Positions 1-56,029 of a stretch of 64,000 nucleotides of DNA are shown in pieces. Position 1 is the stretch's first letter; every line of letters begins with the position of its first letter. Position numbers and translations under genes: made by a program. Source of the stretch: Syntrophomonadaceae bacterium (lineage in GTDB: Bacteria; Bacillota; Syntrophomonadia; Syntrophomonadales; Syntrophomonadaceae); NCBI GenBank assembly GCA_050949825.1, contig JBMNGL010000013.1, forward strand, positions 11,038-75,037, read 5' to 3'. The notes beneath the pieces were generated by a model, which searched no databases, was not told where the DNA came from, and worked only from the letters and a program-made list of their open reading frames with translations.

Positions 1-1
1 T

Positions 2-21688: not shown

Positions 21689-21834
21689 CCCTGGTAGCCT
21701 TAAATAGCTAAAATATTTAAAGCCTATATAAACAAGAAAACTCCGTAAACCTATAAAGATTGTACTTGCAATAGTTTGATATGGATGCAAACATACGAAC
21801 AAATGCAATCGTTGATAGGTGGGGAGTTTTTTTT

Positions 21835-24800
21835 ATGGATGAAAAAAATAAGGCCATGTGGGTACACACCCTGTGGGATCCACTTGAAAAAATAGACCAG
21901 AGTCCACTTCATAGTAAAAAAGACGGTATTAAGGTCGCGGCCTATTGCAGGGTGAGCTTAGACTCGCTTAATATATCAGAATCACTGGAGAGCCAGGTTA
22001 GTCACTATACCCATTTTATCGGCAGAAAAAAGAATTGGAAGTTCGTCGGCATCTATTTTGATAATCTAGTTTCAGGCAGAAAGGCATCACTAAGACAAGG
22101 CTTCACACGGATGCTCAGGCACTGCGATGAAGGGAAGATAGACCTTATACTAGTCAAAAATGTATCCAGGTTCTCCAGAAATGCAAAAGAGCTTATTGAG
22201 ATTGTTGAACGGCTAAAAGAAATTAACGTAACGGTCTATTTCGAAATGGAAAATATCGAGAGCACTAGAAGTGATACTACCTATCTTCTAAATATATTTG
22301 CTAGCATCGCCCAGGCCGAGATAGAAGCGATATCTTACAATATAAAATGGAGCTATGAGAAAAGGACACTTGAAGGTAAAGCTGATATTGGAGATATGTA
22401 TGGATATGATAAAGCCGAAGTAAATGGTGAAACAATAATTAAGATTAATGAAGAAGCTGCTCAAATTGTAAGAGAGATTTTTGTGATGTACCTCAACGGG
22501 TATAGTTCTTATAAGATAGCTGGAGAACTAAGTAGAAGAAATATTAAGACTAAACAGGGAAAAAAGCTTTGGAATTCAAGCACCATTACAGGCATTTTAT
22601 CAAATATTTCATATACAGGAGATATATTGGTTAGAAAAACAATTCAAGATATGCTGACAAACAAAATACGATCAGCCAAAGGTATAGAAGATCAGTATTT
22701 TATTGAAAATCATCATCCAGCAATTATAAGTAAAGAAGTATTTGAACAAGTACAAGAAGAGATAAAGAAAAATGGAAAACCTAGTTCCCCTTATACTCGT
22801 AGATATAATCCGTTACTTAAACGCGTTCATTGTGGGAATTGTGGCTATAAATTTAACAGAAATAAAAATAGGGGTAAAGATTATTTTAAGTGTGTTAGTA
22901 AAATGACCAATAAGAGCCTTTGTGTAAGTCCTGTGATTAAAGAAGATGACATAATAAAAATAATGCTTGGAGGATTCAAAGAACGGTTTGATATAGAAAA
23001 TCCGAAAATCATAAAGATGCTGCAAAGATTTTTAATCAGAATAAATCAAAATGATCATTTTGAATTCCACCGCCTCAAAGCTTTGAACCAGATTCAATTA
23101 GCAAAAAGCTTGCGAGGCGTTGAATACACAGATGAAGATATCGAGCAAATGGAAGAAAGTTATAAGGAATTTGAAAAAGAACTAGTAAAAATAGAAGATG
23201 ATAGGAAGTTCCGATTAGAAGCAATTAAATGGTTGGATACTGTAGAAAATTTTGAAGCCTTCGAAAACCAAGCCACAATTGAATATATGCGTGGCTGGAT
23301 AAAAGAAATTACCATATATTCATTAAACGATTATAAAATCCACTGGATTGATGGAAAAAACACAGAGATCGGAAGTTGTATATCAATTAAACCAGAACTT
23401 GAAGAGCCTTTGGTAGATGAGAATTTAATAGAATTACAGATCAAAGGTTCTTTTGAAGAAAATAAAATCACCTTAGAGAAAGGAGGTGATATACAGAGTA
23501 AGGAGGGAGTTATGGTGCAAGCTGCAAAAAGGTTAAAGTCTGAAAAGCTAAAGTCTGAAAAAAAGTCTGATTTAATGTTTTTAAATATAAAAAAGCAAAT
23601 AAGCAATTCTGTAGTAATGCAAACTACTGTGCCTATACCTAGTAAGAAAAAACTGAAAGTAGCAGCTTATATTCGAGTTTCCACAGAAAGCGACCAACAG
23701 GAAATAAGTTTAAAGACGCAATATACGTATTTTTTGTACTACATTTTGCGGGATCCTCAGTATATTCTGGTTGATATCTATATAGATGATGGAAAGAGTG
23801 GGCTGACTACAAAAGGAAGGACAGAATTTAATCGCTTAATAGACGATTGCGTCGATAGTAAAGTGAATTTAATCATCACAAAATCCTTATCTAGATTTGC
23901 TAGGAATACAGTAGATACTCTCAAATGTTTAAATCTTCTAAAAAATCTAGATCCTCCGGTAAATGTGTGGTTTCAGAAAGAAAATCTTTATTCTTTAGAT
24001 GAAAAAAGCGATCTATTAATAAAACTACTTTCAGTTATTGGGCAGGAAGAAAGTTTGAATATGGGCGAGTCTATTGCTTGGGCGAAAAGGAGTTTAGCTC
24101 AAAGAGGAATAGTTAATCCCGGGCGATTAGCTTACGGCTATTATTACGGGGAAAATAAAGAATGGTTAATAAATAAAGAGGAAGAAAAAGTTGTAAAAAG
24201 AATTTACAAAGAATATCAAGAAGGAAAGAAAATTCAAAAAATAGCCAAGGGTCTTGAGAGTGAATCAATCCCATCTCCAAGTGGACGAAAAAATTGGGAT
24301 CCAAATACAATTAAGGATATATTAATTTCAGAGACTTACAGAGGCAACTATGTTTTTCAAAAATTTTATAATTCGTCAGGTTTAATAAAGAAAAAAACAA
24401 AAAACCAAGGTGAATTACCAATGTATTTTATTGAAAATCATCATCAACCTATAATTGATAGTGAAGAATGGGAAAATATTCAAGAAATAATGAAAATTAG
24501 AGATAAGGAGAGGCAAGATAAAATAGAAAAATATCTACCAGATACTAAAAAGAATGAAGCGTTTTCTAAAAAACTATACTGTGAAAAATGCCATAGTTAT
24601 TTAGGATATATAAGACAGGTAGATAGGGGAAAAAATAATAAGGGAAATAGGCATTGGAGATGTTATAGTGCAAGAAAAGGTAAAGGTTGTGATTCTATAC
24701 ATTTAAAACAGGAGTATATAGAGGAAAACTTTTCTCAATGCTTAATGGACATAAGGCATAATGAAGCTTTTAGAAAATATATCAATCAATATAAAGAGTC

Positions 24801-25500
24801 AGTAAAAATCACTCCAGAGGAAGAAAAATTAAGAGAAAGGTTAAATTTAGAAAGAGAAGAATTAAATCAAAAGTTATATGCAGAAGTAGAAGGAGAGCTT
24901 AATAAAAAAGGCAAAGATGCAAAACAAGTAGATAAATTGATTGATAAGATTATGAAGTTACGACAACAGATAAATACGTTTACACAAAGAGAAGAACAGC
25001 TTGAGTTAATTGAAGAAGATATAGCTGCCATAATGAAGAGTTTAAAAGACTATAAAGATAATAAAAAAACAGGCACAGGATATTATATGAAAGCGCCTAA
25101 ATTTAATAAAGAAATATTTGAAGAACATATAGAAAAAGGAACCGTTGCTGGTGATGGGAAAATTATATATAAATTTAAATCGGGATTTGAGTGGGCAGCA
25201 CCAATTGACTATTCAAACTTTCAAATAAAAGCAAGAAGAAAAATTGCGGCAAAGAGAGCTAAAGAAAAAGCAGAGTATTTAAAGGGGCCTGAGGTAACAG
25301 AATTATTAGAATATTGTATAGAGCCAAAGACTTTTAAAGAAATGCAGAATTTTTTAGGTAAGTATACAGCCTATCATTCTTTTAGAAAACACATACTTGT
25401 GCCTTTGTTAAAACAGGGAATTGTAAAGATGACCATACCGGATCAACCCGTTCATAGATTACAAAAATACTATTCGGTTGACAGGAAGAAACGCAATTGA
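21835..25500 (+). CDS. Fused double large serine recombinase (modules 3 and 4 in one ORF)
   Basis: The frame is uninterrupted from 21781 to 25500. ATG 21835 behind aggtgggga is preferred as the start. There are two full sets of catalytic, recombinase and zinc-ribbon motifs, with Ser codons at 21955-21957 and 23680-23682. An internal SD plus in-frame ATG lies at 23501-23514. Confidence 0.85.
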   Translation: MDEKNKAMWVHTLWDPLEKIDQSPLHSKKDGIKVAAYCRVSLDSLNISESLESQVSHYTHFIGRKKNWKFVGIYFDNLVSGRKASLRQGFTRMLRHCDEGKIDLILVKNVSRFSRNAKELIEIVERLKEINVTVYFEMENIESTRSDTTYLLNIFASIAQAEIEAISYNIKWSYEKRTLEGKADIGDMYGYDKAEVNGETIIKINEEAAQIVREIFVMYLNGYSSYKIAGELSRRNIKTKQGKKLWNSSTITGILSNISYTGDILVRKTIQDMLTNKIRSAKGIEDQYFIENHHPAIISKEVFEQVQEEIKKNGKPSSPYTRRYNPLLKRVHCGNCGYKFNRNKNRGKDYFKCVSKMTNKSLCVSPVIKEDDIIKIMLGGFKERFDIENPKIIKMLQRFLIRINQNDHFEFHRLKALNQIQLAKSLRGVEYTDEDIEQMEESYKEFEKELVKIEDDRKFRLEAIKWLDTVENFEAFENQATIEYMRGWIKEITIYSLNDYKIHWIDGKNTEIGSCISIKPELEEPLVDENLIELQIKGSFEENKITLEKGGDIQSKEGVMVQAAKRLKSEKLKSEKKSDLMFLNIKKQISNSVVMQTTVPIPSKKKLKVAAYIRVSTESDQQEISLKTQYTYFLYYILRDPQYILVDIYIDDGKSGLTTKGRTEFNRLIDDCVDSKVNLIITKSLSRFARNTVDTLKCLNLLKNLDPPVNVWFQKENLYSLDEKSDLLIKLLSVIGQEESLNMGESIAWAKRSLAQRGIVNPGRLAYGYYYGENKEWLINKEEEKVVKRIYKEYQEGKKIQKIAKGLESESIPSPSGRKNWDPNTIKDILISETYRGNYVFQKFYNSSGLIKKKTKNQGELPMYFIENHHQPIIDSEEWENIQEIMKIRDKERQDKIEKYLPDTKKNEAFSKKLYCEKCHSYLGYIRQVDRGKNNKGNRHWRCYSARKGKGCDSIHLKQEYIEENFSQCLMDIRHNEAFRKYINQYKESVKITPEEEKLRERLNLEREELNQKLYAEVEGELNKKGKDAKQVDKLIDKIMKLRQQINTFTQREEQLELIEEDIAAIMKSLKDYKDNKKTGTGYYMKAPKFNKEIFEEHIEKGTVAGDGKIIYKFKSGFEWAAPIDYSNFQIKARRKIAAKRAKEKAEYLKGPEVTELLEYCIEPKTFKEMQNFLGKYTAYHSFRKHILVPLLKQGIVKMTIPDQPVHRLQKYYSVDRKKRN

Positions 25501-28864: not shown

Positions 28865-30028
28865 TCAGAACCATTTGCTGCTTTTAATTAGGTCGTACCA
28901 GTTGAAGTTCATTCCCATAAAACGCTCGATTTCATCAATTTTTATTGTGCTCAATTTACCTTCTAAAATTTTAAACTCAGAGCGAATTTCTTTAATGAAG
29001 TTATAAAGTTGCTGCTTGTCCATAAATAGCGATAATGAAAATATAAGAGAATAAATTCCTCGACGGGCATTTAGACGTTTGTTTTTTCGAGAAGTATTTA
29101 ATCTCCTTCTATGAGCCGGATTAACAGCATATGGTAATTTGTGTCCAAAATTCATGAAGTTATCATCAATGGGGACCCTTATCTTTGAAAGATAGAATCT
29201 CTCGTTGTGAGCACACGTATTTCTGAATAAACTTAGTACCTGTAAAATACGGGAGGTATTTATAATATGTAGATCATCAGAGATGCAAGAGAAATTATTA
29301 ATACCTAGAGTTTTTATCATATGGAGTTGAACATCTTTCTTTTGTAGTGTAAATAGATGGCTGACATTTCCAAAAGTTAAGACATTCATTAAGATCCACA
29401 TTGGCATGTAACCATGCTGCTCTAAGTAAGATTTTATTGAATCATTTTTATTTTTTCTTTGCTGCCCAAGTGTTCGGTATACCGTAGAGATGTAATTGTC
29501 ATAAACTGAAAGTCTATCCAATGTAGAAAATTTTCCATTTGGCCGAGTTCTATGTACTGTTGTGCTGACAATTCCATAACTATCGATATTATGTATGCTG
29601 TAAGAAGAAGTCAAATCGTAATATTTTCTCCGAAGATATTCACTGTCTCTATGAAGAATTGATTTTTCAACATCTGAATTATCAGGGTTACCGTTGAGAT
29701 GGTAGTTGTAGAAAGATTGTACAATCTGGTTTTTTATAATTTCTTCAACCCTTAATATTTCTTTCAGAAAAATGAGGCGAAGGTTTGCGTCAAAGATTAA
29801 TAGCGCCTCTAACTCACTTAATCTAGTACCAGTTTTGTATTTCTCAACACTACTGGATCCCTGGTAAAGGAAGGGGTCTTTATAAGCGTTAATCAAATTA
29901 TAATAATTATATTTCTTAAGAAGCTCTTTTTCCTCGCTTCCATTAGGAATAGTCATATTCCGGCTTCTTAATATTTTGATTCTTTCGCTGTGTGTAGAAA
30001 AATATTTTTCCAAAATTAATTCCCCCAT
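28865..30028 (-). CDS. Abi_2-family abortive-infection protein (AbiD/AbiF-like)
   Basis: 387 aa and AT-rich. LLIFDANLRLIFLKEILRVEEIIKNQIVQSF ... NTCAHNERFY matches the Abi_2 pattern as I recall it. No convincing SD precedes the start. Confidence 0.7.
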   Translation of the reverse strand: MGELILEKYFSTHSERIKILRSRNMTIPNGSEEKELLKKYNYYNLINAYKDPFLYQGSSSVEKYKTGTRLSELEALLIFDANLRLIFLKEILRVEEIIKNQIVQSFYNYHLNGNPDNSDVEKSILHRDSEYLRRKYYDLTSSYSIHNIDSYGIVSTTVHRTRPNGKFSTLDRLSVYDNYISTVYRTLGQQRKNKNDSIKSYLEQHGYMPMWILMNVLTFGNVSHLFTLQKKDVQLHMIKTLGINNFSCISDDLHIINTSRILQVLSLFRNTCAHNERFYLSKIRVPIDDNFMNFGHKLPYAVNPAHRRRLNTSRKNKRLNARRGIYSLIFSLSLFMDKQQLYNFIKEIRSEFKILEGKLSTIKIDEIERFMGMNFNWYDLIKSSKWF

Positions 30029-30651: not shown

Positions 30652-30720
30652 GCAGAAAACTGATAGCTACTAAGAATATCAACTTTTTACTTGACATTTT
30701 GAAATATACTAGTTTTCTAT

Positions 30721-30742
30721 TTATCCTTTTAGAATCATGGAG
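30721..30742 (+). other. att-like junction core, copy 1
   Basis: ttatccttttagaatcatggag matches 35809-35830 at 19 of 22 positions. The two sequences diverge completely after ...catggag. Confidence 0.55.
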
Positions 30743-30773
30743 AAATGGCATATTTGTATTTAACATTAGCAGG

Positions 30774-31115
30774 ATGAATGAGTTTATTGACGCCCATTCA
30801 GAGCAATTGACTACTGATGTTATTGATGTTGCCTATTATTATAATTTAGTGAAGCACCATGAGTTTAAAGATGACTATGTTCGGCAGGCTGATCTGGAAC
30901 GTCCGGTTATCCTGGCTGAAATTGCGCCAGACAGGTTAGAGATGGGTATGGGAGTAAATCCGAACATTTACTATGAGCGGGGATATAATTTAATTGACGG
31001 ACATCACCGGGTTGTCAAAGCCCACTGGTTGGGCGTCAAAACATTGCCCGCTTATATTTTCCGCATGGAACAGCATATAAATTTCCTGGCGCAAGGTGTT
31101 ACTGCCACCCCATAA
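30774..31115 (+). CDS. ParB/sulfiredoxin-fold (ParB-like nuclease domain) protein
   Basis: 113 aa from ATG 30774. YNLIDGHHRVVKAHWLG contains the DGHHR motif of ParB N-terminal-like domains. Listed ORF is 30699..31115. Confidence 0.6.
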   Translation: MNEFIDAHSEQLTTDVIDVAYYYNLVKHHEFKDDYVRQADLERPVILAEIAPDRLEMGMGVNPNIYYERGYNLIDGHHRVVKAHWLGVKTLPAYIFRMEQHINFLAQGVTATP

Positions 31116-31199
31116 TGTCCAGCAATAGACGATGTTAAATGTCCAAAAACTGACGGACGTAGTGACCGAAGATATTAGCCCCATTGGGGGCAGGGAGAA

Positions 31200-32000
31200 C
31201 TAACTCAATTCTCCCTGAACAACAAACTTCACCATGTGATCATCAATAATATTTCGATTGTTTTGTGCTCCATATATCAGGCAATGAGTACAAACCTTGT
31301 TTACCATTCTGGCAGCTCCACTAGAAAACTTAAATATCTCATCTACAGCATTATCCGAAAAAATATCATGGTCGGCACCGGCATAAGCCAGGTGTGTTTT
31401 AATGTATTCGCCTACTTCTGCCCGGTCCAGATAAGGCAACTTGCACTGCAGGTCAATGCGCTGCCTGATTGCTGCGTAAGATTGGAGTTTAAGCCGTTCC
31501 CAGAGTTCGTTTTGTCCTACCAGGATTAAAGCCATCGGGCTCTGTGCATCCATTTTGAAGTTTAGTAGGAAACGGACTTCTTCCAGCATTTCTTTGTCTA
31601 AAAGATGGGCTTCATCTACGATAACCACGGGCTCTAGATGATGGATGCCTTGCATAAGTTCAATCTCTTTATGTAATTGGCGTTTGGCATCGCCCCGATA
31701 GAACTTGGCCTCACAACCTAATTGTTCAAGGAGACCTTTGTAAAAATGCCGGGGGGTCAATTTGGAATCAGCCAGGTACATCATCATAAACCGGGATGTA
31801 TCTAAAGTTTCTTTAAGCTTACGTATGGTGGTAGTCTTGCCGGTTCCACAGTCCCCGGTTAACACTGCAAACATCTGGCGCTGAGCGGTATATTCTAAAC
31901 GTCCCAGGGTTTCTTCCAGCATATGCGATTGATACAACTGATCAGTGGGGATATCCCTGGAAAACGGTGTTCTTTCCAGACCATAAAAACTCTCAAACAT
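31200..32000 (-). CDS. AAA+ ATPase, transposition helper (TniB/ExeA-like)
   Basis: Walker A GDCGTGKTT and Walker B VVIVDEAHLL. Its start overlaps the transposase stop by 8 nt. Confidence 0.85.
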   Translation of the reverse strand: MFESFYGLERTPFSRDIPTDQLYQSHMLEETLGRLEYTAQRQMFAVLTGDCGTGKTTTIRKLKETLDTSRFMMMYLADSKLTPRHFYKGLLEQLGCEAKFYRGDAKRQLHKEIELMQGIHHLEPVVIVDEAHLLDKEMLEEVRFLLNFKMDAQSPMALILVGQNELWERLKLQSYAAIRQRIDLQCKLPYLDRAEVGEYIKTHLAYAGADHDIFSDNAVDEIFKFSSGAARMVNKVCTHCLIYGAQNNRNIIDDHMVKFVVQGELS

Positions 32001-33348
32001 GGCTTTCCCCCTCCTTCCTTACCTTCCGGTAGGAGACAGCAGGGATTTGGTGTTCTTTACGCTCCTGGTTTTTCCTGGCGGCTGCATTTAGTAGCCTTGA
32101 AGAATTAGCTGGAGCCTTCTGTAAATGCTCGGGTAGTTTAGGCCTGGGAGCACTCCGCTCTCCGATAACCAGTTCTTTAGCTTTAAAAGGTTTGTGGCCT
32201 TCGTATTCAATAGTAAGTTCGCTGATATCGGCTGGATCATAGATAACATCTACCTTGCAGCCAATAAAGGTTAGTCCTACTTCGTATTTTTTCCCCGCAA
32301 AACTGATGCAGCCTGCCTTATCTACTTTTCTTTCTTCGCAATGGAGGAAAGCACTGGCTATTGTTTCGGGGTCTAGAAATTTTAATGCTTTCCTGTCACT
32401 GCGATAAGCAGTCTGAGGACTAATGTTTCCTTCTAACCCGGAATGGGGCTTGTTCTGATAACACTCCTCCAACCAGACCTCAAATAGCTGGTTTAATTTA
32501 TCCAGGGTTTGAGGTTTCTCCAGAACCGCTTCAGCCAGGAAGGAATCTACTACCCGGTTAAATCGTTCTGATTTCCCGGTAGCTTCAGGGGAATAGGGCT
32601 TGGCAAAGAGTAAGCGAATCCCCATTTTAGCGCAAGCTCTTTTCATCCATTTGGTTCGATACTGGCTACCGTTATCGAAATATACTTTCTCTGGTACCCC
32701 ATATTTTAAAATGGCCTGGCGGAAAGCATCTTCTACGATTACCTGATCCAAAGTGGGATAGAACTGACCATGCAAAATATATCTGGTCGCATCATCCACG
32801 AAGGTCACAAGATAAACCTGCTTCTTTTTCCCGTCTTTGCCTATGGGTAGGTATGGGCCATATTTTATGTCGGAATGCCAAAGTTGGTTACGGTATTTCT
32901 TCTGGTAACGCCGGGCAGCTGTACCGGTATCGGCATACATACGCATGTGCCGGGCGCTGTAACCTCGTTCGGCCAGTTTCTCTTGCAGGGTACTGCGCTT
33001 GATTTGTCCTGGCTCTACCACCCCTTCCCATTCTAGAATTTGAATAATCTGTGCAATGCTACGGCTCGGTACCTGCCTGCGCAAAAGGATTGCCTGTTCC
33101 AGGATGTTAACCGGTATTGCTTCGTCACTTCGTCGCTCGCCCTTACCTTTGGGTTTGAGTCCGCTAAAACCATCCTTCTGATACTGGGCCAGGTATCTGC
33201 GCAGGGTACGTTCGGATATGCCGGTCTGTTCGCATATCCTGGCTTTAATCTGCCTGGCCTGAGCGCTATCCAGCCCTTCGGCCAGGAGTGGGGACAGGAT
33301 TTGCACTCGCTGCTCGGCAATTTCGTCTGCTTTCTTTTGGTCTCTCAT
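31993..33348 (-). CDS. DDE transposase/integrase (rve core, Mu-like)
   Basis: N-terminal HTH region. WHSDIKYGPY ... VTFVDDATRY ... YFDNGSQYRT ... PYSPEATGKSERFNRV forms the D,D(35)E core. Confidence 0.9.
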   Translation of the reverse strand: MRDQKKADEIAEQRVQILSPLLAEGLDSAQARQIKARICEQTGISERTLRRYLAQYQKDGFSGLKPKGKGERRSDEAIPVNILEQAILLRRQVPSRSIAQIIQILEWEGVVEPGQIKRSTLQEKLAERGYSARHMRMYADTGTAARRYQKKYRNQLWHSDIKYGPYLPIGKDGKKKQVYLVTFVDDATRYILHGQFYPTLDQVIVEDAFRQAILKYGVPEKVYFDNGSQYRTKWMKRACAKMGIRLLFAKPYSPEATGKSERFNRVVDSFLAEAVLEKPQTLDKLNQLFEVWLEECYQNKPHSGLEGNISPQTAYRSDRKALKFLDPETIASAFLHCEERKVDKAGCISFAGKKYEVGLTFIGCKVDVIYDPADISELTIEYEGHKPFKAKELVIGERSAPRPKLPEHLQKAPANSSRLLNAAARKNQERKEHQIPAVSYRKVRKEGESHV

Positions 33349-33397
33349 GCTGATTACCTCCTTTTTCAGGTTTCAGCATGAGTGTAAAGCTATACTG

Positions 33398-33883
33398 TTA
33401 TGGACAAAAGGCGAAACGGGTATGTATCCATAAATTTAAGTTGGCTATGGGGCGGACAACTCTGGCTAGCCATCCCGGAGCATCCCCTACATAATGCCAA
33501 ATCCTTTGGAGCTTGGACTCAGGAAGATCGGATTTATCTTCCACAGATTCTTTGCCATAACGGATTGTAATTGATTCCAGGCAACCTTGAAAGTAATCGA
33601 CCTTCTCATTAAACCATTTTCTCCATCGGTTCAGAGTAGATTCATCAGAGATAACACTAAGCTCTGAATCATTGCTAACCACTGCCTCAATACTTTCACT
33701 AACATGGAGTTTGTATGGCACAAGCATATCCGGTAGTTCGTGGTGGATACGGTTACATTCAATGCATCTTAACCTACGAATGATTAAAACTATCTTTTCC
33801 CCTGAGGCAGTGATACATTTTCTCTGGCGGCTACCGATTACTTTTAATTTTCCACTACAACACGGGCAGGGAAGTTGCTCCAA
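33398..33883 (-). CDS. Zinc-ribbon protein of the transposon (DUF6431-like)
   Basis: CPCCSGKLKVIGSRQRK ... RRLRCIECNRIHHELPDMLVPYK. It is the first gene of the element. The N-terminal 48 codons are duplicated at 38189-38332. Confidence 0.65.
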   Translation of the reverse strand: MEQLPCPCCSGKLKVIGSRQRKCITASGEKIVLIIRRLRCIECNRIHHELPDMLVPYKLHVSESIEAVVSNDSELSVISDESTLNRWRKWFNEKVDYFQGCLESITIRYGKESVEDKSDLPESKLQRIWHYVGDAPGWLARVVRPIANLNLWIHTRFAFCP

Positions 33884-34092
33884 GCTCCTAACAAAAAACT
33901 CCCTTATCGGGGTTTAAATCTAATTGATAATTTGTTACAATTACCATACCTTTGGGGGACGCTTCTGGTGCTTCTGTTGGAGCAGTTGCACATTTAACAG
34001 AGGCGTCTTTTCCTTTCCCTAAGATATGGTCATTATATCCAGCAATTCTCGGTCAGGCAATACCGTCAGCTTTTGGACGGTTTAGGTTGGCT

Positions 34093-35570
34093 GTAACAGG
34101 GTATCCAAAGCTTGGCTCAAAGAGGCATCATCACAAGGATAACTGATATTTATGGTTATCACATTACCAAGAATAGAGAATGGCATATTGTAGAAAAAGA
34201 GGCGGCGGTTGTTCGTTTAATGTATCAGCTTTATGCTGCCGGGAAAAGCATTTTTGAAATTATTAAGTACTTAAATAAAAAGAAAATCCCAAGTCCTAAT
34301 GGTTATGAATTTTGGAATTACCATACGATAAAACAAATTTTAGGAAGTGAAAAATATATGGGGGGACTATAATTTTCAGAAGACCTATACTCCTAGCATA
34401 GTAGGAAGCAAGCCTAGGGTTAATCGTGGCCAGGTGCCCCAATATTATATAGAAAAGCATCATCAGCCGATTGTAGATAAAGACCTCTATAAAAAGGTGC
34501 AGGAAATTCTAAATCAAAACAAAAGGACAATTACTTGGGAGGCCAGAAAAGATGGAACCGCAGGGAGAGAATTGTACTATCAAAAGTTTTATTGCAGTGA
34601 GTGCGGGGGCTTAATCTCCAGGTATAGTAGCAGCTGCTATGATTCCAAAGAAGGAAGTACATGGAGATGTAGAAACTCAAATAAAATAGCCAGCACTACG
34701 TGTAATGTTACACGGATGATACTGGAGCAATACTTGGATTATAATTTTGTGCTTACTCTTAAGGCGATTAAAAAGAGTCATGAATTTAGAAATTTGATGA
34801 GAGATTATTTTAAATTCTTGGAACTTAAGCCAGAGGAACAAAAGCATATGAAATTCTTAGAAGAGCAAACAGACAAGCTCAATCAAGAGCTATATTAGGG
34901 CCGTGGATACCCAGGTTCAAAAAAATGGCCAAGACACAAACCAGATTAATCAAATCACAAGTGACATTGTTAACCTGCGTCAGCGGCTTCAGGTCTATTG
35001 GGATAGGATGGAAAAGCTAAAGAGAGATCGTGAGCGCTTGGAAAAGCTACTGAATTACTGTGAAAAAATGAAGCCTCTATCTTTTAAAAAATTTCACCAC
35101 ATGCGCCCTCGCATCAAGCCAGGGGATAGTATTTATTCAACTACAAATAATGCAAGGAATAGTAGCTATATTGATCCGGCAGGTGAGGATTATTTTCCGG
35201 AAGATGTGTTTAGGGAACAAGTTATTAGCGGAACAATTGACGGTGATGGCCGCATAAAATACAAGTTTGCTGAGGGTATTGAGTTTGGGGTTGATATGAT
35301 ATATGAAGAGTATAAAAAAACTTTTGAAAAGGAAAAAGCAAAGATCCAGCTTGAAGAACTTCTTAATTCCAGTGAGGTAATGGAAACGAAGGAATTCTGT
35401 AAAACTACAAAAACAACTAAAGAGATACGCGAACCCATCTAGGCATTAAATCGAATAACTCCTTTGATAAACGGATACTCAAACCACTTTGTAAAGCCGG
35501 TAAATTGAAACAGGAGCAAGGAAACACCTCTAAGTGTTATCTTTATTCTTGGGTTGAAGATGAAAATTAA
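34093..35570 (+). pseudogene. Decayed large serine recombinase (fifth copy; 5' truncated, at least 3 frameshifts)
   Basis: Begins at ...SLAQRGI, just after where the catalytic domain would end, abutting the transposon end. It is collinear with module 4 of the fused recombinase (EKYMGDYNFQKTY vs ETYRGNYVFQKFY; EKHHQPIV vs ENHHQPII). Frame breaks lie at the G-run 34360-34365, near 34890-34905 and at the C-run 35434-35436. The stop is at 35568-35570. Confidence 0.85.
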
Positions 35571-35624
35571 ATAGTCTTGATGGGATCGAATTAACAAATA
35601 ATAAGGATTAGTGCATTTGAAAAA

Positions 35625-35706
35625 GACTCAGTAAGAAAGAATCTAACTTCGGCACAGTACCGAGGGGAGAGGAAATCTTACTGAGTCTTTTTTTTTGTTC
35701 AAATAA
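35625..35706 (+). terminator. Long hairpin plus T-run (element-end terminator, copy 2)
   Basis: gactcagtaag (35625-35635) pairs perfectly with cttactgagtc (35687-35697), followed by 9 T. The inner cttcggca/taccgagg stem matches 30581-30651. Confidence 0.7.
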
Positions 35707-35808
35707 ATAAGCAATTTAGTAAGACCTATAATAATAGGAAGGAAGTCGGTCCATCACGTTGTGGTGGGCTTTTTTTATTGCGGTTTTCAAATGTACATTT
35801 ATATTTGT

Positions 35809-35830
35809 TTATCCTTCGCGAATCATGGAG
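35809..35830 (+). other. att-like junction core, copy 2 (island / comM boundary)
   Basis: ttatccttcgcgaatcatggag. comM-coding sequence follows immediately. Confidence 0.6.
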
Positions 35831-36665
35831 TTCTTCCCAGCATGACCGAAGAAGAGGCTCTGGAAACCACGAAAATTTACAGTGTAGCCGGAATGCTAAA
35901 AGGAAAGGGACATTTGATCAAGGAACGTCCGTTCCGGGCGCCTCATCACAATGCTTCCACCAAATGCCCTAATTGGAGGAGGGAACAATGCTACCCCCGG
36001 GGAAATATCCCTGGCCCATAACGGGGTATTATTTCTGGATGAAATTGTGGAGTTCAGCAAGAAAACGCTGGATGCCTTAAGGCAGCCTATGGAAGATAAA
36101 GAGGTTACCATTTCCCGGGTGAAATACAGCAACACTTATCCGGCTAGCTTCATGCTGGTAGCAGCCATGAATCCCTGTCCCTGTGGTTATTATGGAAGTG
36201 ACAAATGCCGGTGCAGCGATTATGAGGTGATCAAATACCGACAACGATTATCAGGCCCCATAATGGATCGGATGGATATTCAAAAATATGTTCAGCCGGT
36301 TAATTTTATTAATCTATCCGAGTATGCTTTTGGCAAGAGCTCCACAGAGCTTCGGGAAAGGGTTGAATTGGCCAGAGGCATTCAGAAGAAGAGGTTTGCA
36401 AAGATTGCAGGAATCAATTGCAATGCTCAGATGGGACATGCTCTGATTAAGGAATTTTGTGAGTTGGATACAGAATGCCAACGCTTGCTGCAGGGTGGCT
36501 TATGACCGATTCAAATACAGTGCCAGAACCTATTATAAATATCTGAAGGTGGCAAGAACCTTTGCTGATTTGGACGGTGCAGCAGGCATTCGCAAAAAGG
36601 ATGTGGCGTCAGCCCTGATGGCCCGGGATCTGGAGAAGGAAAAGGCGGGTATGATGGTCATTTAG
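35812..36665 (+). pseudogene. comM: comM/yifB (Mg-chelatase-like competence ATPase), 3' part only, with two frameshifts
   Basis: [23 protein letters not shown] ... [11 protein letters not shown] / [27 protein letters not shown] ... LRQPMEDKEVTISR ... / YSARTYYKYLKVARTFADLDG are ComM blocks spread over three frames. The breaks are at the A-run 35962-35964 and near 36488-36492. The N-terminal ~235 codons, including Walker A, are absent. Confidence 0.85.
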
Positions 36666-36674
36666 GAGACAGGC

Positions 36675-37811
36675 ATGGAGTATTGGATCTGGTTAAAACA
36701 AATCAGCGGTATCGGAACTATCCTGGAAAAAAGATTATTAGATCGTTTCCCATCCCCTCAAGCAATTTATGAAGCCTGTGCAGAAGAACTGCTGTCAGTG
36801 GAGGGAATAGGCCCTACCTTGGCCAAAGTCATTCGACAGCAGCGGTCTTTAGATCAAGCCAGGACCCTATTGGAAGGGACTCTGAAGCAGGATATAAACT
36901 TATTGACCTACCATGACCCCTTATATCCTGCTATGGCCCAACAATCTTCGGAAGCTCCCACCATCTTATATTATAAGGGAAAGATTAGAGAAAATAGCAC
37001 CGGCGTGGCCATTGTGGGTTCCCGCCGATGTACAGATTATGGGAAACAGGCGGCCGTGGAAGCAGCCTATTTTCTGACCAAACATGATATTCCGGTAATC
37101 AGCGGGATGGCCAAGGGCATTGATGGCTATGCCCATACTGCCTGTTTAAAAGCCGGAGGATACACCATTGCCCTTCTGGGAAATGGGGTTGATATTTGTT
37201 ATCCCAAGGAACATGATGGGTTATTGGCCGGTATCATTGAAAACGGCGCGGTTATTTCTGCATACCCGCCCGGGACCAGACCGCGTCCTGAATACTTCCC
37301 GGAGAGAAATGAACTCATCAGCAGTTGGAGCCACAAAGTGTTTGTGGTTGAGGCGGGAGAAAACGGCGGGGCATTAATTACAGCAGGGTTTGCCAGAGCC
37401 CAGGGAAAAGAAGTCCACGTTTTACCCCATGAGATACTTAATCCAAGCGGAAAAGGCAATAATCGGCTGATTGCCCAAGGTGCTCATATCTATTTGCATC
37501 CGTCACAATTGTTGCCAAACTCTGATTTAGGTTCAGCGGGTATAGCTTCAATAAATAACCACCTTCCTGCTGAAAATGAAGAAATACCTAACCTGACCAG
37601 GGTGGACCCAAGCAGTGAACATCTCCGTAAACCCGATAGACAGCTAAGCCATACCGAGCAGAAAATTCTCTCCAGTCTCTCTTCGGCTCCAAAGACCATC
37701 GAAAAAATAAGTGCAGACACCCAGATAGACCAGCTTCAGTTGATCCAGGTTCTTTCTCTGATGGAACTGGAAGGTTTGATCCGGACTTACCCAGGGGGCA
37801 GGTTTGTGTGA
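36675..37811 (+). CDS. dprA: DNA processing protein DprA (Smf)
   Basis: GVAIVGSRRCTDYGKQAA ... VISGMAKGIDGYAHTACL ... TIALLGNGVDICYPKEH ... FPERNELISSW is the DprA Rossmann-like core, with a C-terminal winged-helix-like tail. Confidence 0.9.
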   Translation: MEYWIWLKQISGIGTILEKRLLDRFPSPQAIYEACAEELLSVEGIGPTLAKVIRQQRSLDQARTLLEGTLKQDINLLTYHDPLYPAMAQQSSEAPTILYYKGKIRENSTGVAIVGSRRCTDYGKQAAVEAAYFLTKHDIPVISGMAKGIDGYAHTACLKAGGYTIALLGNGVDICYPKEHDGLLAGIIENGAVISAYPPGTRPRPEYFPERNELISSWSHKVFVVEAGENGGALITAGFARAQGKEVHVLPHEILNPSGKGNNRLIAQGAHIYLHPSQLLPNSDLGSAGIASINNHLPAENEEIPNLTRVDPSSEHLRKPDRQLSHTEQKILSSLSSAPKTIEKISADTQIDQLQLIQVLSLMELEGLIRTYPGGRFV

Positions 37812-37831
37812 GACTGGTGCCTGACAGTGCT

Positions 37832-37855: not shown

Positions 37856-37982
37856 CTTAAAGCCAGCCGGAAAAGCTTTTTTGAATGAGATTATGCCCGC
37901 TTACTTTAAAGTTCTCTTTAAAGATCCTGAAATAAGAGATAATATTGCTAGCATTACGATTGAAGGTTATTGTTATAGCTAG

Positions 37983-38343
37983 CCTAAACCGTCCAAAAGC
38001 TGACGGTATTGCCTGACCGAGAATTGCTGGATATAATGACCATATCTTAGGGAAAGGAAAAGACGCTTCTGTTAAATGTGCTAATGCAGCAACAACAAAA
38101 GCACCAGAAGCGTCCCCCAAAGGTATGGTAATTGTATCAAATTATGAATTAGATTTAAACCCCAATAAGGGAGTTTTTTGTTAGGAGCTTGGAGCAACTT
38201 CCCTGCCCGTGTTGTAGTGGAAAATTAAAAGTAATCGGTAGCCGCCAGAGAAAATGTATTACTGCCTCAGGGGAAAAGATAGTTTTAATCATTCGTAGGT
38301 TAAGATGCATTGAATGTAACCGTATCCACCACGGAAGCATGGC
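37983..38343 (+). mobile_element. Partial inverted second copy of the transposon right end
   Basis: Corresponds to 34086-33726 in reverse orientation. It includes the terminal repeat and the first 48 codons of the zinc-ribbon gene (38189-38332). It stops abruptly at repeat copy B. Confidence 0.85.
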
Positions 38344-43988: not shown

Positions 43989-44019
43989 AATAATTCCGGG
44001 GACTGTCCCCGAACTTATT
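43989..44019. repeat. ~30 nt palindromic intergenic element, copy F
   Basis: aataattccggggactgtccccgaacttatt. Confidence 0.85.
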
Positions 44020-44058
44020 GCTGCATGTGGTAAACCGGGGGAGCCGGAAAGAGGACGC

Positions 44059-46233
44059 TTAATAGTGTGCTTTTCCCTGCTGGGGAAACCGCAGCTTGAA
44101 AGTAGTCCCCGCAGGGTTGCTCCTGACTTCGAGTCTGGCATTATGTCGGGCGGCGATGCTGTAGCAAATGGACAATCCCAATCCGGTGCCATTTTCCTTG
44201 GTAGTGAAAAAGGGTATACCGATTTTATCCATTATCTCGGGTTTTATCCCCGGTCCCTCGTCCTTCACATACAATACGATGTCGCTTTCCTCAACCGTGG
44301 TGCCGATAGTCAAGGTTCCGCCGGGTGACATGGCTTCCAGGCCATTGTGGGCCAGGTTGAAGATTACCTGGCGAATCTCGTTCTGGTCAATCATTGGCAT
44401 GGGAGGCCTCCCTAATTCCAGGTTTATTTTCTGCCCTTTAAAATTTGCCTCGGCCTCAAGCATGGGATAAATGGTTTTTACCACCTGGTCAATATATTGA
44501 GCCTGCAGGCAGACCATTTTATCCTTGGCCATACCCAAAAACTCGGAAATGATTACGTTGGCCCGGTCGAGTTCTTCCACCATGAGATCCAGGAATTCAC
44601 TGTCTTCTTGGTACTTTTCTTTAAACATCTGCAAGAAGCCGCGGACTGATGTCATCGGGTTTCTGATTTCATGCCCGATGCTGGCTGCTATTTCTCCAAT
44701 GAGATTTAAGTTTGACAGGCGCGCCATCTCTTGCTCAATTCGTTTCTGTTCAGTAATATCAATCAGAGTGGTAATGCGACAAAGTTTTTCGTTTAAGTAT
44801 AATAAATTACTCCACAGCAGACCGCGACGGATATTACCTGATTTGGTACGGAAATCGACTTCAAAACTCTCCAGCTTTCTTTTTTTCTTAATCAAGCTGT
44901 CCAGCTTTTGCTTTTGTGCCGTGTCGGCGAAAAGATTTATCTCGCTGATGGGTCTGCCTATAATTTCATAACGATTGTAGCCCATGCCCGCAAATATTGC
45001 CTCATTGGCATCAATAAATATTCCTTCATGGATTGAGGATAAGGTCATCATGATAGGACTTTCATGAAAAACCTTGGAGAACTTTTCTTCTGAGATGCGC
45101 AAGGTATTTTCCGCCTGCTTGCGAGCAGTGATATCAATAGAAATGCCTGCAAACCGCAGTGCTTTGCCTTGTTCATCTCTTACCACCACCTTGCCGCGCT
45201 CTAGAATCCATTTCCATTCTCCCGATTTGGTTAACAAGCGCAGTTCTGATTCGAATTTAGGGGTTTTCCCGCGTAAATGAGCAAACAACGAATTCTTCGC
45301 TTCAGGAAAATCGCAGGGATGAATAAGATTTTTCCAGGTACTGATGGTTGGTTCAAGTTCTTCTAGTGAATATCCAAGCACATCAGCCCAGCGCCGGCTA
45401 AAATAGACTCTGTCCGATTGCAAATCCCAATCCCAATAGCCGTCATTACTCGCCTCCAATACCATCCGCAAGCGTTCTTCACTTGCACTTAAGGCCAGGT
45501 CCGATGCTTCTAACTGGCGCATCTTCTCCAGGCCTATAGCTGACAGTACTTGTCCCAGTTTTGAATAGAAATCCATTACCAGTTTGACTTGCTGTTCGGG
45601 AACGATAGTAATTTTGTGAAGTGCATCAATATAGGCATCTTCATCAAAACCAAACTGCCGGGCCTGCCTTCTGAAAAAACCTTCGTCCGGGGGCTCTTCC
45701 AACAGTTGCCCCATGTAGATGGTAGCTATATGTCGGCCTTCCAATATTATCGGGGTAGCATAGTCGATAAGTCCGTTTAAACATTTATATCTGATATAGG
45801 AATCTTGCAGATGGGCCGATATGTATTTATCACTTTGTTTACATTGCTTTTCTGTTTCCCTACAAGTGCGATGAAACTTGAGGCACATATCTGACCAACC
45901 GTTCCTGCTGAGAATATTGCCGTCGCTATCAAGCAAGGCATGCCCTATTCCTGTAAGCTGATAAAAAGAATCAAACAATTGTTGAATCAGCGCAATATCT
46001 ATGAGATCCGAGATGTGATATTTATGTGCTTTATTAATGGGGTTTTGCGGTTTCTGATCCTGGGACAAGGAATCGTTTCTGTCAATCGGGTAGCGGTAAT
46101 CGGTAGACTGCAGCGCAGGTCTCATAATCCTGGGGTTTTGTTCCTGTTGGGCACGTTCCAGTTCCGCAAGCTTTTGCTGCAATTCGGTTATTTCCGCTAT
46201 GAGTTGCTCTTTTGTTTTATCTTCATGACCCAC
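44059..46233 (-). CDS. Sensor histidine kinase with PocR-like and PAS domains
   Basis: The PocR-like segment has a Cys-rich motif (MCLKFHRTCRETEKQCKQSD). Two PAS regions follow, then the H-box SIGHEIRNPMTSVRG and HATPase N/G boxes (NLAHNGLEAM, DEGPGI, GTGLGLS). GTG 46233 behind ggagg is preferred as the start. The listed ORF extends to 46326. Confidence 0.85.
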   Translation of the reverse strand: MGHEDKTKEQLIAEITELQQKLAELERAQQEQNPRIMRPALQSTDYRYPIDRNDSLSQDQKPQNPINKAHKYHISDLIDIALIQQLFDSFYQLTGIGHALLDSDGNILSRNGWSDMCLKFHRTCRETEKQCKQSDKYISAHLQDSYIRYKCLNGLIDYATPIILEGRHIATIYMGQLLEEPPDEGFFRRQARQFGFDEDAYIDALHKITIVPEQQVKLVMDFYSKLGQVLSAIGLEKMRQLEASDLALSASEERLRMVLEASNDGYWDWDLQSDRVYFSRRWADVLGYSLEELEPTISTWKNLIHPCDFPEAKNSLFAHLRGKTPKFESELRLLTKSGEWKWILERGKVVVRDEQGKALRFAGISIDITARKQAENTLRISEEKFSKVFHESPIMMTLSSIHEGIFIDANEAIFAGMGYNRYEIIGRPISEINLFADTAQKQKLDSLIKKKRKLESFEVDFRTKSGNIRRGLLWSNLLYLNEKLCRITTLIDITEQKRIEQEMARLSNLNLIGEIAASIGHEIRNPMTSVRGFLQMFKEKYQEDSEFLDLMVEELDRANVIISEFLGMAKDKMVCLQAQYIDQVVKTIYPMLEAEANFKGQKINLELGRPPMPMIDQNEIRQVIFNLAHNGLEAMSPGGTLTIGTTVEESDIVLYVKDEGPGIKPEIMDKIGIPFFTTKENGTGLGLSICYSIAARHNARLEVRSNPAGTTFKLRFPQQGKAHY

Positions 46234-46773
46234 GGGCAATTGCCTCCAGCGGATTTGTTTCACTTTATATATATACAATAACCCAATTTGATGGTAAATA
46301 ATGTCGAATATGGCATGAAAAATCAAATTTTATTTAAATACGTTTTGCGATAATCAAAGGACGTCATACGATGTAATTCTGCACTTTTAAGGTCGCCCTA
46401 TTTATGGCCAAATTTCGACCTGTTTAGGAATAAATCTTAAGAATAGGTTCGATATTTTAATCAGCTCATTTCGGAGCATTACGAGAGTTGTCACAAACAC
46501 TGCCGTTTATTTGGTTAAATTTTTGTACTTCAGTAAGATCAAGGAAGAGTGCGGGGTGATTATATCAGATGGCTTTACAGGTACTCGTCTGAAAAAGTCA
46601 GAAAAATCCGGGCTTAATGTAGGCTTTTGTCCCAAAATAACTTTTATTTGTACTCCGGCTGGAGCGATGAAGCATGACAAAATAGTTTCCGCCCATTGAC
46701 AGCAGCCTGAATGTATAGACAACAAATAGGAAAATAAAAAGGGCAGCCGAATCAGGGTTTATAGTATAGTATT

Positions 46774-48690
46774 TTATTCAATAACGACCGGGTTATGGAT
46801 TAAAGCATATTGAGGATTGGTCAGGGGCTGGTCGTAAGGATTAAGTGCATAGGCATATTTATTTCCGATGAGAAAATCATATTGAAGGATTTCATATTGA
46901 GTAAATTGCTCTTTGGTTATATTTTCATGATGCAGATGCTGAGCCGCAGTAACCAGATTGGAGCCTTTTTGGCTTAAAGTGTAGAGAAAGTCTGTTAAAG
47001 GGGTGCCGGTTTTCTTGCTATGGGACAGGACGTAGGAACTGAGAAAACTTGAGGAGAGCCGCAGACTTTCCCTGCGGTTGGAAAAGTTATCCCAGACTAT
47101 GATAGGAACGCTGTATTTTTTCAAGTAATCGTCATAGGAAGAATCATTCTGAAAATAACCCGCCTCTTTGTACACCTCACAGTCATTCCCCAGCATGGGC
47201 AGGTGATCACCAAAAAACACCACCATGGTAGGCTCATTTTGCATTTTCAGGCCTTCAATTAAAAGCTCCAGGGATTTATCCACATCAGATATGATGTTGG
47301 TGTAGTTTTCAAGGATAAACCGGGTTTCGGGTTCAAGCTCAGCGCTGATTTTAATCGGTAAATCCGGATTTTCCATGTTGGAGTAAGGGCCGTGAGCCTG
47401 CATGGAGATTGCAAAGATGAAATCAGGTTTATCCGTTTGTTCCAGCACTTGCAGAATTCTTTGGGACAGTTCAGTATCGCGGATATAGGGCCCGCTGTAC
47501 TCAGGATTGCTAAATGAGTCCTTGCTGATAAAGCATTCAAATCCCAAATTCGGATAAACGCTATTGCGCCGATAGAACCAGTCATCATAGGTGTGAATAG
47601 CAGTGGCTGCATAGCCTTGTTTTTTCAATATGGCGGGCAAGGCTTCAATAGGTTTGTGAACGAATTGAATATAGGGAATGACACCCTGGGGAAGAAATTG
47701 GGTGGAAAATCCCGTCAACACCTCGAATTCGGTATTTGCCGTACCGCCGCCATAAACCGGAGCCAGCATAACTCCGCTGTTATGCTTATGCTGCAAGGCA
47801 TGGAAATAAGGGAGAGGGTCTTCGCTAAAGGATATTCCTGGCAATACGGTGGGATCCCAAAAGGCCTCACTCATTACCAGGATGATATTGGGGGAGAAGT
47901 TCCGATCTACAGCATAGGAGGGAACGCACTGCCTGACAATGGTTTCAATAGTTCCTGCTTGATAAAAACCCGGCTCTTCAACAGATTGGCATTTGGCATT
48001 GAGAACAAAAGCAAGCATCATGCCATTTTCTTCGCAGTTGGCTTTCTGATTCCAGTTTATAAAATGCAGGGCAAATGTTTTCTCCAGGGTATTGGATTGG
48101 AATGTAGTCAATAATATTGAGATGCTTAGCAAGGCAACGGCAACCTTTTTATGTAAAGGATATTTTTCCTTGGGAGTAAACAAGAAGGCGATGAAGACAA
48201 TCACTGCCAGGCTAACGATCTCAATCAGCAAAATAGGTGATACCAGGTTGAGCAGTTCAAAGCTTTTGGAAATATTCAGGGCTTCTTTTCCGATCACAAA
48301 ATCCCAGTGCAGCAGAGGCTCTCCTCTTAACAGCAGTTTTTGACGGCTGATGAATCCGGCCACAGAGAATAAAGTCACAAACAATACCCCGCAAGCCCCA
48401 TATATCCTGCGGGGCAATATATAAAAAATATTGATTAAACCAAAAACTATAGCATACCCGGCCAGGAACTGATTGGGGTAACTGCTTATCCAGGATAGGG
48501 TTGCGGCAAGACTGCCACGGATTATTAATTCCGGTAAGAATAAAGCGATAAAAGGTATCAGTGCTAACAAAGCAAGATTGAACATAGTACTCCCTTCAAA
48601 AGCAAGCCGCCAGGCAGGCCCCAAAAATCTCCCTATCCCCTGTTTCACCATTTCCGGGGACATCTTTTTAATTATACTACTGTATAGCAT
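46774..48690 (-). CDS. LTA synthase-family (sulfatase-fold) membrane protein
   Basis: 638 aa. N-terminal multi-TM region, then an extracellular sulfatase-like domain (NIILVMSEAFWDP ... GGGTANTEFEVLTG ... SMQAHGPY ... FFGDHLP). Confidence 0.8.
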   Translation of the reverse strand: MLYSSIIKKMSPEMVKQGIGRFLGPAWRLAFEGSTMFNLALLALIPFIALFLPELIIRGSLAATLSWISSYPNQFLAGYAIVFGLINIFYILPRRIYGACGVLFVTLFSVAGFISRQKLLLRGEPLLHWDFVIGKEALNISKSFELLNLVSPILLIEIVSLAVIVFIAFLFTPKEKYPLHKKVAVALLSISILLTTFQSNTLEKTFALHFINWNQKANCEENGMMLAFVLNAKCQSVEEPGFYQAGTIETIVRQCVPSYAVDRNFSPNIILVMSEAFWDPTVLPGISFSEDPLPYFHALQHKHNSGVMLAPVYGGGTANTEFEVLTGFSTQFLPQGVIPYIQFVHKPIEALPAILKKQGYAATAIHTYDDWFYRRNSVYPNLGFECFISKDSFSNPEYSGPYIRDTELSQRILQVLEQTDKPDFIFAISMQAHGPYSNMENPDLPIKISAELEPETRFILENYTNIISDVDKSLELLIEGLKMQNEPTMVVFFGDHLPMLGNDCEVYKEAGYFQNDSSYDDYLKKYSVPIIVWDNFSNRRESLRLSSSFLSSYVLSHSKKTGTPLTDFLYTLSQKGSNLVTAAQHLHHENITKEQFTQYEILQYDFLIGNKYAYALNPYDQPLTNPQYALIHNPVVIE

Positions 48691-49056
48691 ATAATGTGTG
48701 CGGATACCACCCCAATCACTGTAAAAACAAGGGCAGATCCAAATTTGACCTGCACCCGGCGTTATATGATGGTGCAGCCGGAAGGGGGGATATATCTATC
48801 CTGGGCTGCATTATGAAGGGAATTATGGCCAATTTGCAGAATGTTGCGGAATGTTTAAATGGGGAAGGGCTGCTCAGTTTGATTGCGTATGGTGGTATGA
48901 AAGCAGTACAATAACTGCCTGGAGCGAATGGAGTTATTCAGTTGAAAACGGTTATGGGCTGTGGAGCGAAAGCCTTGCAGCTGCCCGAAAAGGCCGTTGA
49001 TTTCAGTTAAGGGAACGGTGCTGGAGGAAATGGGGTTTATTTATGATGGGTAGGAC

Positions 49057-49087
49057 AATAAGTCCGGGGATAGACCCCGAACTTATT
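49057..49087. repeat. ~30 nt palindromic intergenic element, copy G
   Basis: aataagtccggggatagaccccgaacttatt. Confidence 0.8.
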
Positions 49088-49101
49088 GCCGCTTTTGCCC
49101 C

Positions 49102-49953: not shown

Positions 49954-50047
49954 TTCTTATTATTGCCCTATATATAGAGTATACTGTATTTTCCCCTACA
50001 GCACTGGCTTTGAAGCAAACATCTTCCATTTTGGAGCAAGCACGGGT

Positions 50048-50099
50048 TACACGGATGACACGGGGACGGGGGTGACAACAACCCCGTGTCACCCGTGTA
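50048..50099. promoter_or_regulatory. 18-bp inverted repeat in a divergent intergenic region (candidate operator or hairpin)
   Basis: tacacggatgacacgggg (50048-50065) and ccccgtgtcacccgtgta (50082-50099) are complementary at 17 of 18 positions, with a 16-nt spacer. Confidence 0.5.
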
Positions 50100-50234
50100 T
50101 GATGCCCCGGTTTGCTTTGAAAGGCTGGATATTTTGGCTATATTGTGCATAATAGGGTATGAAGGCCGAAGCCCCGTGAATAAATTTTCATTGGGTTTAA
50201 TTTATTAAATTAAAGTAAAAGGGAGGAAATTATT

Positions 50235-50417: not shown

Positions 50418-50466
50418 CTTGCGCAGATATTGCAGTCTTTTACATAGATTATGCTAGGAGATCATC

Positions 50467-56017: not shown

Positions 56018-56029
56018 GGGAAAAAACAA

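Follow-up and report, generated by a model that had tools for sequence, protein, structure and literature searches.

Introduction

Serine-integrase phages can act as reversible switches of the host genes that they interrupt. The Listeria phages phi10403S/A118 in comK and SPbeta in spsM (with SprA/SprB) are such active-lysogeny systems, in which the gene halves stay in frame, an active integrase and a directionality factor are present, and excision restores the gene. A second group of elements, the AbaR/Tn6019-type islands, occupies comM in Acinetobacter; these islands of Gammaproteobacteria move by Tn7-like transposition using a TnsD-type selector. ComM itself has a role in natural transformation as a branch-migration helicase, which has been demonstrated in Gram-negative species; we know of no demonstration of this function in Bacillota.

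Mg-chelatase/ATP-dependent-protease (YifB/ComM) genes are the target of 12.4% of predicted site-specific large serine recombinases (LSRs), and competence genes are enriched among LSR targets (Durrant et al. 2022, PMC10083194). The Wolbachia prophage sr1WO splits a magnesium chelatase gene, and both secondary sites and later rearrangements separating the gene pieces have been described for it (Bordenstein & Bordenstein 2022, PMC9203015). Likewise, streptococcal ICEs carry triplets of serine integrases, encoded in tandem at the element end and oriented toward the target; they insert inside genes, some of which belong to other mobile elements, and the direct repeats are very short (Ambroset et al. 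2016, PMC4701971).

Here, we analyzed a comM locus in a 64,000-nt stretch of DNA, which we refer to as the window. As in the elements surveyed in PMC10083194, an LSR-bearing element interrupts the coding sequence of a YifB/ComM homologue; unlike in those, all that persists of it is the right junction with a stump of the recombinase, whereas the partner half and attL are gone. The prophage sr1WO is comparable in being a tailed prophage with a serine recombinase that is flanked by Mg-chelatase-like gene pieces, but it belongs to another host phylum, carries a recombinase of an unrelated clade and usually keeps both halves. The comK and spsM switches share with our locus the interruption of a competence or developmental gene by a serine-integrase phage, yet in the window no 5′ half is present, frameshifts interrupt the remnant, and of the recombinase just a stump is left. 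Also in line with the AbaR/Tn6019-type islands, comM appears to be a gene in which large mobile elements land repeatedly and which thereby loses its function, although those islands do not use serine recombination. Finally, the relatives of the stump terminate LSR-LSR-LSR modules reminiscent of the ICE triplets (PMC4701971), but these modules are found in phages, downstream of holin and amidase genes, and the target is comM.

A truncated and frameshifted comM precedes dprA

We compared the segment upstream of dprA with intact ComM proteins of relatives (512 aa; L081:1628-3166 and L082:1371-2909), which were reached via the neighbouring DprA. In tblastn searches these proteins matched the window in three frames at 91–95% identity, with residues 236–279 aligning to 35830–35961, residues 280–456 to 35963–36493 and residues 456–512 to 36492–36662. 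Residues 1–235 gave no match anywhere in the 64 kb with the same queries; the absent amino-terminal part thus amounts to exactly 235 codons, Walker A included. The remnant matched the Pfam profiles PF01078 (profile positions 43–207, E 2e-50) and PF13335, and its middle piece matched positions 277–456 of the NCBIfam model TIGR00368, against which the relatives' ComM scores 568 bits with a cutoff of 362. Missing from the remnant are PF13541, the N-terminal Lon-like ChlI domain, and the Walker A P-loop, both of which the relatives' ComM possesses (Walker A, GAPGCGKS). With the remnant as a query for related loci, the matches listed were all relatives at about 50% identity, and the ComM N-terminus as a query retrieved relatives but no piece belonging to the genome of the window.

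At the DNA level, homology to the relatives' comM begins at 35831 (TTCTTCCCAGC...), and the alignment contains exactly two single-base insertions in the remnant, which therefore does not form a single uninterrupted reading frame. The original prediction, made from the letters of the window, had recognized ComM/YifB from 35831 onward, the loss of about 235 N-terminal codons with Walker A and a frame break at the A-run 35962–35964, all of which our comparison bears out. It had placed a second break near 36488–36492; the break exists, but lies a few bases away from there, where GG has become GGG (Table 1). Its suggestion that the gene is dead also holds, and at both breaks the window truly differs from the intact alleles of conspecifics. 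We conclude that 35831–36665 is the dead back half of comM, cut at a serine-recombinase insertion site.

The neighbouring dprA is intact and follows the comM stop after 9 nt. A comM–dprA pair with a 9-nt gap is also present in the annotated relatives L081, L082 and L084, and L193 has the pair with a gap of 16 nt. Two terminator-like hairpins are located between the recombinase stump and the comM junction, and a scan of the + strand of 35400–36750 yielded no sigma-70-like promoter. From this arrangement, dprA may have lost upstream transcription.

Table 1 Features of the comM locus and its surroundings in the window (window coordinates).
Feature	Coordinates	Strand	Basis or remark
Siphovirus-like prophage, 30.7 kb, runs off the left window end	1–30742	+	Pfam, Rfam
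Arm P_I, homologous to P_II, at the prophage right end	30720–30742	+	Alignment
Host DNA, 31 nt upstream plus first 107 codons of geneX	30743–31096	+	X1 contig match
Three-gene IS, 3002 bp	31097–34098	−	Pfam; contig breaks at both ends; multi-copy depth
LSR3 stump, outermost large serine recombinase of the comM-splitting element	34099–35442	+	PF07508 only
Two terminator-like hairpins with T-runs	35620–35692 and 35748–35770	+	Inverted repeat and terminator scan
Element-side arm P_II of right junction attR2	35785–35830	+	Conspecific contigs differ left of 35831
comM (YifB family) 3′ remnant	35831–36665	+	Residues 236–512 of 512, three frames
First comM frameshift	35962–35964	+	AAA vs AA in relatives and conspecific contigs (+1)
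Second comM frameshift	36493–36495	+	GGG vs GG in relatives and conspecific contigs (+1)
dprA, intact, 378 aa	36675–37811	+	PF02481, TIGR00732
Inverted partial copy of the IS right end, 363 nt	37971–38333	−	Inverted repeats, 94–98% complementary

The comM homology starts at the right junction of an integrated element

The arm P_II ends ...GAATCATGGAG, and the crossover maps to 35830|35831, on the border of the TT that follows (35831–35832) or just within it; this TT is the first sequence shared with attB. The precise boundary against the empty site of near-identical genomes identifies 35830|35831 as an attR. That comM coding sequence starts exactly at the element boundary, as had been predicted, is confirmed by the homology and the conspecific divergence, both of which change over at this position. 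The P arm also occurs in L171 and in the isolate-type runs X28/X36/X41 with other right-hand partners; in L171 the next two letters are AG, and AA comes after the homologous arm at 30743. No attP was recovered, the P arm being without match in the viral contig collection, and a degenerate P-arm pattern was discarded, its sole match being an unrelated phage coding motif. An attL carrying the other comM half is absent from the window as judged by tblastn, and the place expected for it by conspecific synteny is occupied by the IS. Placing X47 and X3 on a relative's comM yielded no usable loose end for attL recovery.

The recombinase gene next to the junction, LSR3, points toward it from a distance of 389 nt. 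Of ~680 residues, the stump retains the ~446 at the C terminus, and the catalytic domain is missing, whereas full-length homologues comprise 678–682 aa with both PF00239 and PF07508, the relatives being the last gene of holin-amidase-LSR-LSR-LSR modules. Based on homologues in the runs X28/X36/X41/X25, we called three frame breaks in the stump: a +1 in the G-run 34355–34360, a +1 at TT 34894–34895 and a +2 (CGCG) at about 35426–35429. The recombinase piece had no close relative in the genome contig collection. Stump and arm together leave 1.7 kb (34099–35830) of the element that split comM.

No published attB was matched to the site after RIPT(I). In IMG/VR contigs, recombinase genes adjoin comM fragments at several distinct positions; L172 and L174 were considered as instances of the same split position and rejected, as they still contain Walker A and are cut further upstream.

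Conspecific metagenomes contain the empty site and an intact comM

Conspecific contigs from four unrelated metagenomes (X1–X4; sludge, bioreactor and two without stated habitat) cover 35831–37830 of the window. Those of X1 and X3 show one substitution and five gap letters relative to the window, the latter made up of the two extra comM bases and an in-frame 3-nt difference in dprA. Both extra bases are lacking in the comM contigs of X1–X4, and the remnant shows no substitutions against conspecific comM. Left of 35831, the conspecific contigs read AATCCATGATTGCGAAGCGTATTCCAACTA, the comM 5′ sequence encoding ...SMIAKRIPT(I). The X1–X3 contigs part from the window exactly at 35830|35831, and since they continue left into comM 5′, this position represents a true insertion junction.

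The junction itself was recovered as a minor contig in X3 (35659–35856; 3.6x vs 11.8x) and in X47 (35759–36028), the latter with four substitutions and without the extra A. For the AAA allele, two sampled 31-mers of 35933–35994 occurred in no indexed public run, a result that is to be read as concerning these two words. A pattern for the comM 5′ end found no match in the metagenome contig collection, and many truncated N-terminal ComM fragments in public data stop at or near ...RIPT(I). Taken at this locus, the insertion is probably irreversible in the present strain, with the gene intact in conspecific strains.

Further irregularities were seen within comM of other populations. The X1 and X2 contigs break at the equivalent of L087:1702 (about nt 340 of comM), with a depth upstream of the break that is ~1.7–2 times the downstream depth, and one contig carries on from there as unrelated sequence (AATCCGCTCC...); this might reflect a second sub-population in which comM is disrupted in another way. 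In other genomes, L194:1150-1330 has a comM deletion from the ...RIPT site to the RPFRAPHH site, and L193:10650-10830 has an insert of ~65–80 nt near the L194 site in which short target sequence is duplicated. Either may be a scar left when an element was lost.

Host DNA and an IS separate the junction from a neighbouring prophage

The gene preceding the IS, termed geneX, starts with an ATG at 30774 and is cut by the IS 16 codons short of its stop. A 1913-nt X1 contig matches 30743–31096 with 0 differences and, beyond 31096, runs for 49 nt to the geneX stop, then crosses a Y1/REP transposase gene and reaches comM, of which it covers the first 340 nt (L087:314-1702, about 96% identity). The same arrangement from geneX to comM is given by X2 and X3. 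By 30 nt, the X1 contig overlaps a 2654-nt contig with the comM 3′ part and dprA, and the loose ends obtained from two references dovetail (...CTATTGGAATGA and TATTGGAATGATAAG...). The conspecific order is hence geneX, REP-type Y1 transposase gene, comM and dprA, and the counterpart of 30743–31096 lies about 1.1 kb upstream of comM. A tblastn search detected no Y1 transposase sequence anywhere in the window.

The IS encodes a DUF6431 zinc-ribbon protein, a Mu/rve-type transposase and an AAA_22 ATPase, its terminal inverted repeats begin TGTTAC, and its flanks (CAAGG / GGGTA) show no target-site duplication. In conspecifics these flanks are not adjacent, being at least 1.8 kb apart in addition to the element length. 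This is the configuration expected for an IS-mediated deletion, in which an entire IS, bounded by inverted repeats, lacks a target duplication and joins sequences that are apart in relatives. About 1.8 kb of host DNA is gone, from the end of geneX across the transposase gene to comM codon 235, and attL and nearly all of the integrated element are gone with it. The IS is present in about five copies (57.9x vs 11.8x host depth in X3), and the 363-nt copy is located 3′ of dprA, so that IS ends in inverted orientation enclose the segment from the stump through the comM remnant to dprA.

Host DNA before the IS implies that the prophage occupying the left part of the window is separate from the comM junction. 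The part of this prophage inside the window reads, in order, TerL, portal, ClpP protease and capsid, then a group II intron, tape measure and a tail protein, and lastly holin, amidase, serine recombinases, IS110, IS256 and Abi_2. Its serine recombinase genes start at 18350, 19967 and 21781, the last being a 1239-aa double. Over 1–3838, the prophage is 98.5% identical to the JGI contig L086, with one 6-nt and one 3-nt indel, and a search with the portal protein retrieved only a 4.8-kb JGI relative. The right end of the prophage forms the junction attR1 at 30742|30743, for which the conspecific empty site reads ...GAGTACTTCGT|AAATGGCAT. The big prophage is not inserted in comM, but ends at its own junction.

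Several additional features of the prophage were noted. The group II intron (8707–10619) belongs to the tail region, where the head-tail genes precede it and the tape measure gene follows it, and consists of an RT/maturase/HNH ORF (8707–10497) and domain V/VI (10523–10619; Rfam RF00029); the related IMG/VR phage PV036457.1 (89% identity) has a reverse transcriptase at the same place. The 1239-aa ORF (21781–25500) contains two complete serine-recombinase units, with resolvase, recombinase and zinc ribbon each present twice, followed by a Fic-like C-terminal domain, and has a 1205-aa counterpart in L171. Just ahead of the first recombinase gene, the 3′ end of the amidase gene is present twice, as a 109-nt direct repeat (17415–17523 / 18012–18120, 97% identity). 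An abortive-infection-like Abi_2 gene (28865–30028, − strand) is positioned between the IS256 copy and the prophage right arm, and the non-coding right end carries extra single bases at 30366 and 30633 compared with near-identical low-depth X2 contigs.

Elsewhere in the window, a cobalamin riboswitch (56026–56206; RF00174, 110 bits) precedes a 1269-aa ORF at 56370. In the region 54.0–56.0 kb, metagenome depth is patchy and very high, and contigs break at numerous points.

Proposed history of the locus

Based on these data we propose a history of LSR integration, IS-associated deletion and decay that left comM irreversibly inactivated, to which we assign a probability of roughly 75%. The junctions, the empty sites, the gene order of conspecifics, the indels and the IS lacking a target duplication are direct observations; the order of events and the loss, rather than relocation, of the comM 5′ half are deduced, the loss from this locus only. 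An LSR-bearing mobile element would have integrated in comM between codons 235 and 236 (...CGT ATT CCA ACT A|TT CTT CCC...), producing the attR at 35830|35831, and a related phage would separately have integrated 31 nt upstream of geneX, giving rise to the prophage with its own junction. An IS-associated deletion would then have taken the last 16 geneX codons, the REP-type transposase gene and comM codons 1–235, together with attL and nearly the whole element, its outermost recombinase gene included as far as about codon 235. It could have proceeded by recombination of two direct IS copies or by adjacent deletion from one copy, leaving geneX′, IS, recombinase stump, arm P_II and comM′. Freed from selection, the stump would have gained three slippage insertions and the comM remnant two. 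The comM 5′ half and attL were most likely deleted together.

Two observations complicate the deletion step. With about five IS copies, collapse of two of them in the assembly would mimic a deletion, and a 961-nt X2 contig, in which P_I with AA is followed by 227 nt and then by sequence from 34099 onward, both flanks being identical to the window, suggests that the ancestral arrangement may have been nested and the history less simple. The window arrangement might derive from such a nested ancestor; this would not alter what is present here, but bears on where a 5′ half, if one survives, might lie. For the decay step, the spectrum is unusual for neutral change, as all five indels are insertions and comM has no substitution against conspecifics.

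Alternative explanations

The original prediction had read base 1 to 35830 as sitting in a split comM, that is, one island of at least 35.8 kb with the comM 5′ half at its left end, possibly acting as an excision-dependent switch of the comK type. Such an island would account for an element that ends exactly within comM, for the intact-looking recombinase genes at 18350–25500 and, through nested integration as suggested by the P_I–stump join in X2, for a comM 5′ half located farther left; it predicts comM 5′ sequence ending ...CGTATTCCAACTA to the left of the window. However, the host DNA 30743–31096 and the IS intervene between prophage and comM junction, and the prophage has both its own junction at 30742|30743 and its own conspecific empty site, which contradicts the single island. 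As the prophage ends at that junction and the comM-splitter is the 1.7-kb stump, the 5′ half is not expected at the left island end. Nor does the proposed switch stand. A switch needs both gene halves intact and a functional cognate recombinase, whereas the window contains neither attL nor the 5′ half, the 3′ half is frameshifted twice, and the recombinase next to attR has lost ~235 N-terminal residues with its catalytic domain and carries three frame breaks. No excision can restore comM here, and we regard the single island as very improbable.

Integration followed by IS-associated deletion, our preferred reading, also has to be set against errors of the assembly. The two frame breaks of the remnant could be consensus errors at short homopolymers, as the original prediction had cautioned: both are +1 changes in short runs, all five indels in 34099–36665 are insertions (G5>G6, T>TT, CG>CGCG, AA>AAA and GG>GGG), the remnant is free of substitutions against conspecific contigs, no public run contains the two sampled 31-mers around AAA, and X47 shares the junction without the extra A. 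However, 20 kb of host DNA (44001–64000) showed no 1-nt in-gene indel against three Illumina-derived metagenome assemblies, the differences being substitutions, in-frame indels and intergenic indels only, with 6 kb identical to X2. Similarly, the only indels relative to L086 in 3.8 kb of phage structural genes are in-frame, dprA is intact at a distance of 9 nt, the CG dinucleotide duplication in the stump is atypical of homopolymer error, and the breaks cluster only in already non-functional sequence. Consensus error therefore appears unlikely, and the frame breaks are probably real mutations, as judged from these comparisons. A further assembly effect would be that the join of geneX′, IS and stump is an artefact, in which two direct 3-kb IS copies were collapsed and a real segment with comM 5′, attL and the element body was skipped. 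The multi-copy depth of the IS is in keeping with a collapse, from which the absent target duplication would also be expected, but a 522-kb contig that passes through full-length IS, IS110 and IS256-type (Mutator family) genes implies long reads spanning 3 kb. In X3, moreover, the comM 5′ contig has a depth of 7.9x compared with 11.8x for the 3′ part, a gap of about the depth of the attR contig (3.6x), which fits a real loss. The comM 5′/3′ depth ratio of X1 and X2 is opposite to that of X3, and we therefore dropped these ratios as proof of loss. Overall, a collapsed assembly seems quite improbable.

Discussion

The arms described here (...CATGGAG) adjoin LSR3-type genes in several other contexts. 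In L171:5447-5700, a third arm variant directly adjoins the interior of an LSR3-type gene at ~residue 157; in X28/X36/X41, a P_II-like arm is followed after 54 nt by an LSR3-like interior corresponding to the stump start; and in X2 an arm lies 227 nt upstream of the stump start. That arms adjoin LSR3-type interiors at three positions suggests that related elements also land in each other's recombinase genes. One could speculate from this that multi-LSR phages use both comM and the catalytic region of each other's outermost LSR as targets, such that a newcomer disables and strands the resident; the stump in comM would then be a fossil of this contest at a locus polymorphic between comM-plus and irreversibly comM-minus states. 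We hold this broader scenario to be tentative, and rather doubtful at present.

Among the target classes described so far for LSR elements, comM-type genes are the commonest, and in this respect the locus adds little conceptually. It does provide a clean, population-resolved example of how an insertion turns permanent, by an IS-linked deletion followed by slippage indels, in which the deletion strips attL, the catalytic half of the recombinase and the 5′ half of the gene. For annotation, the finding of an island end in comM should not be extended to a neighbouring prophage without checking the intervening host DNA. If comM works in transformation in this lineage of Bacillota, strains with and without functional comM would co-exist in digesters and landfills.
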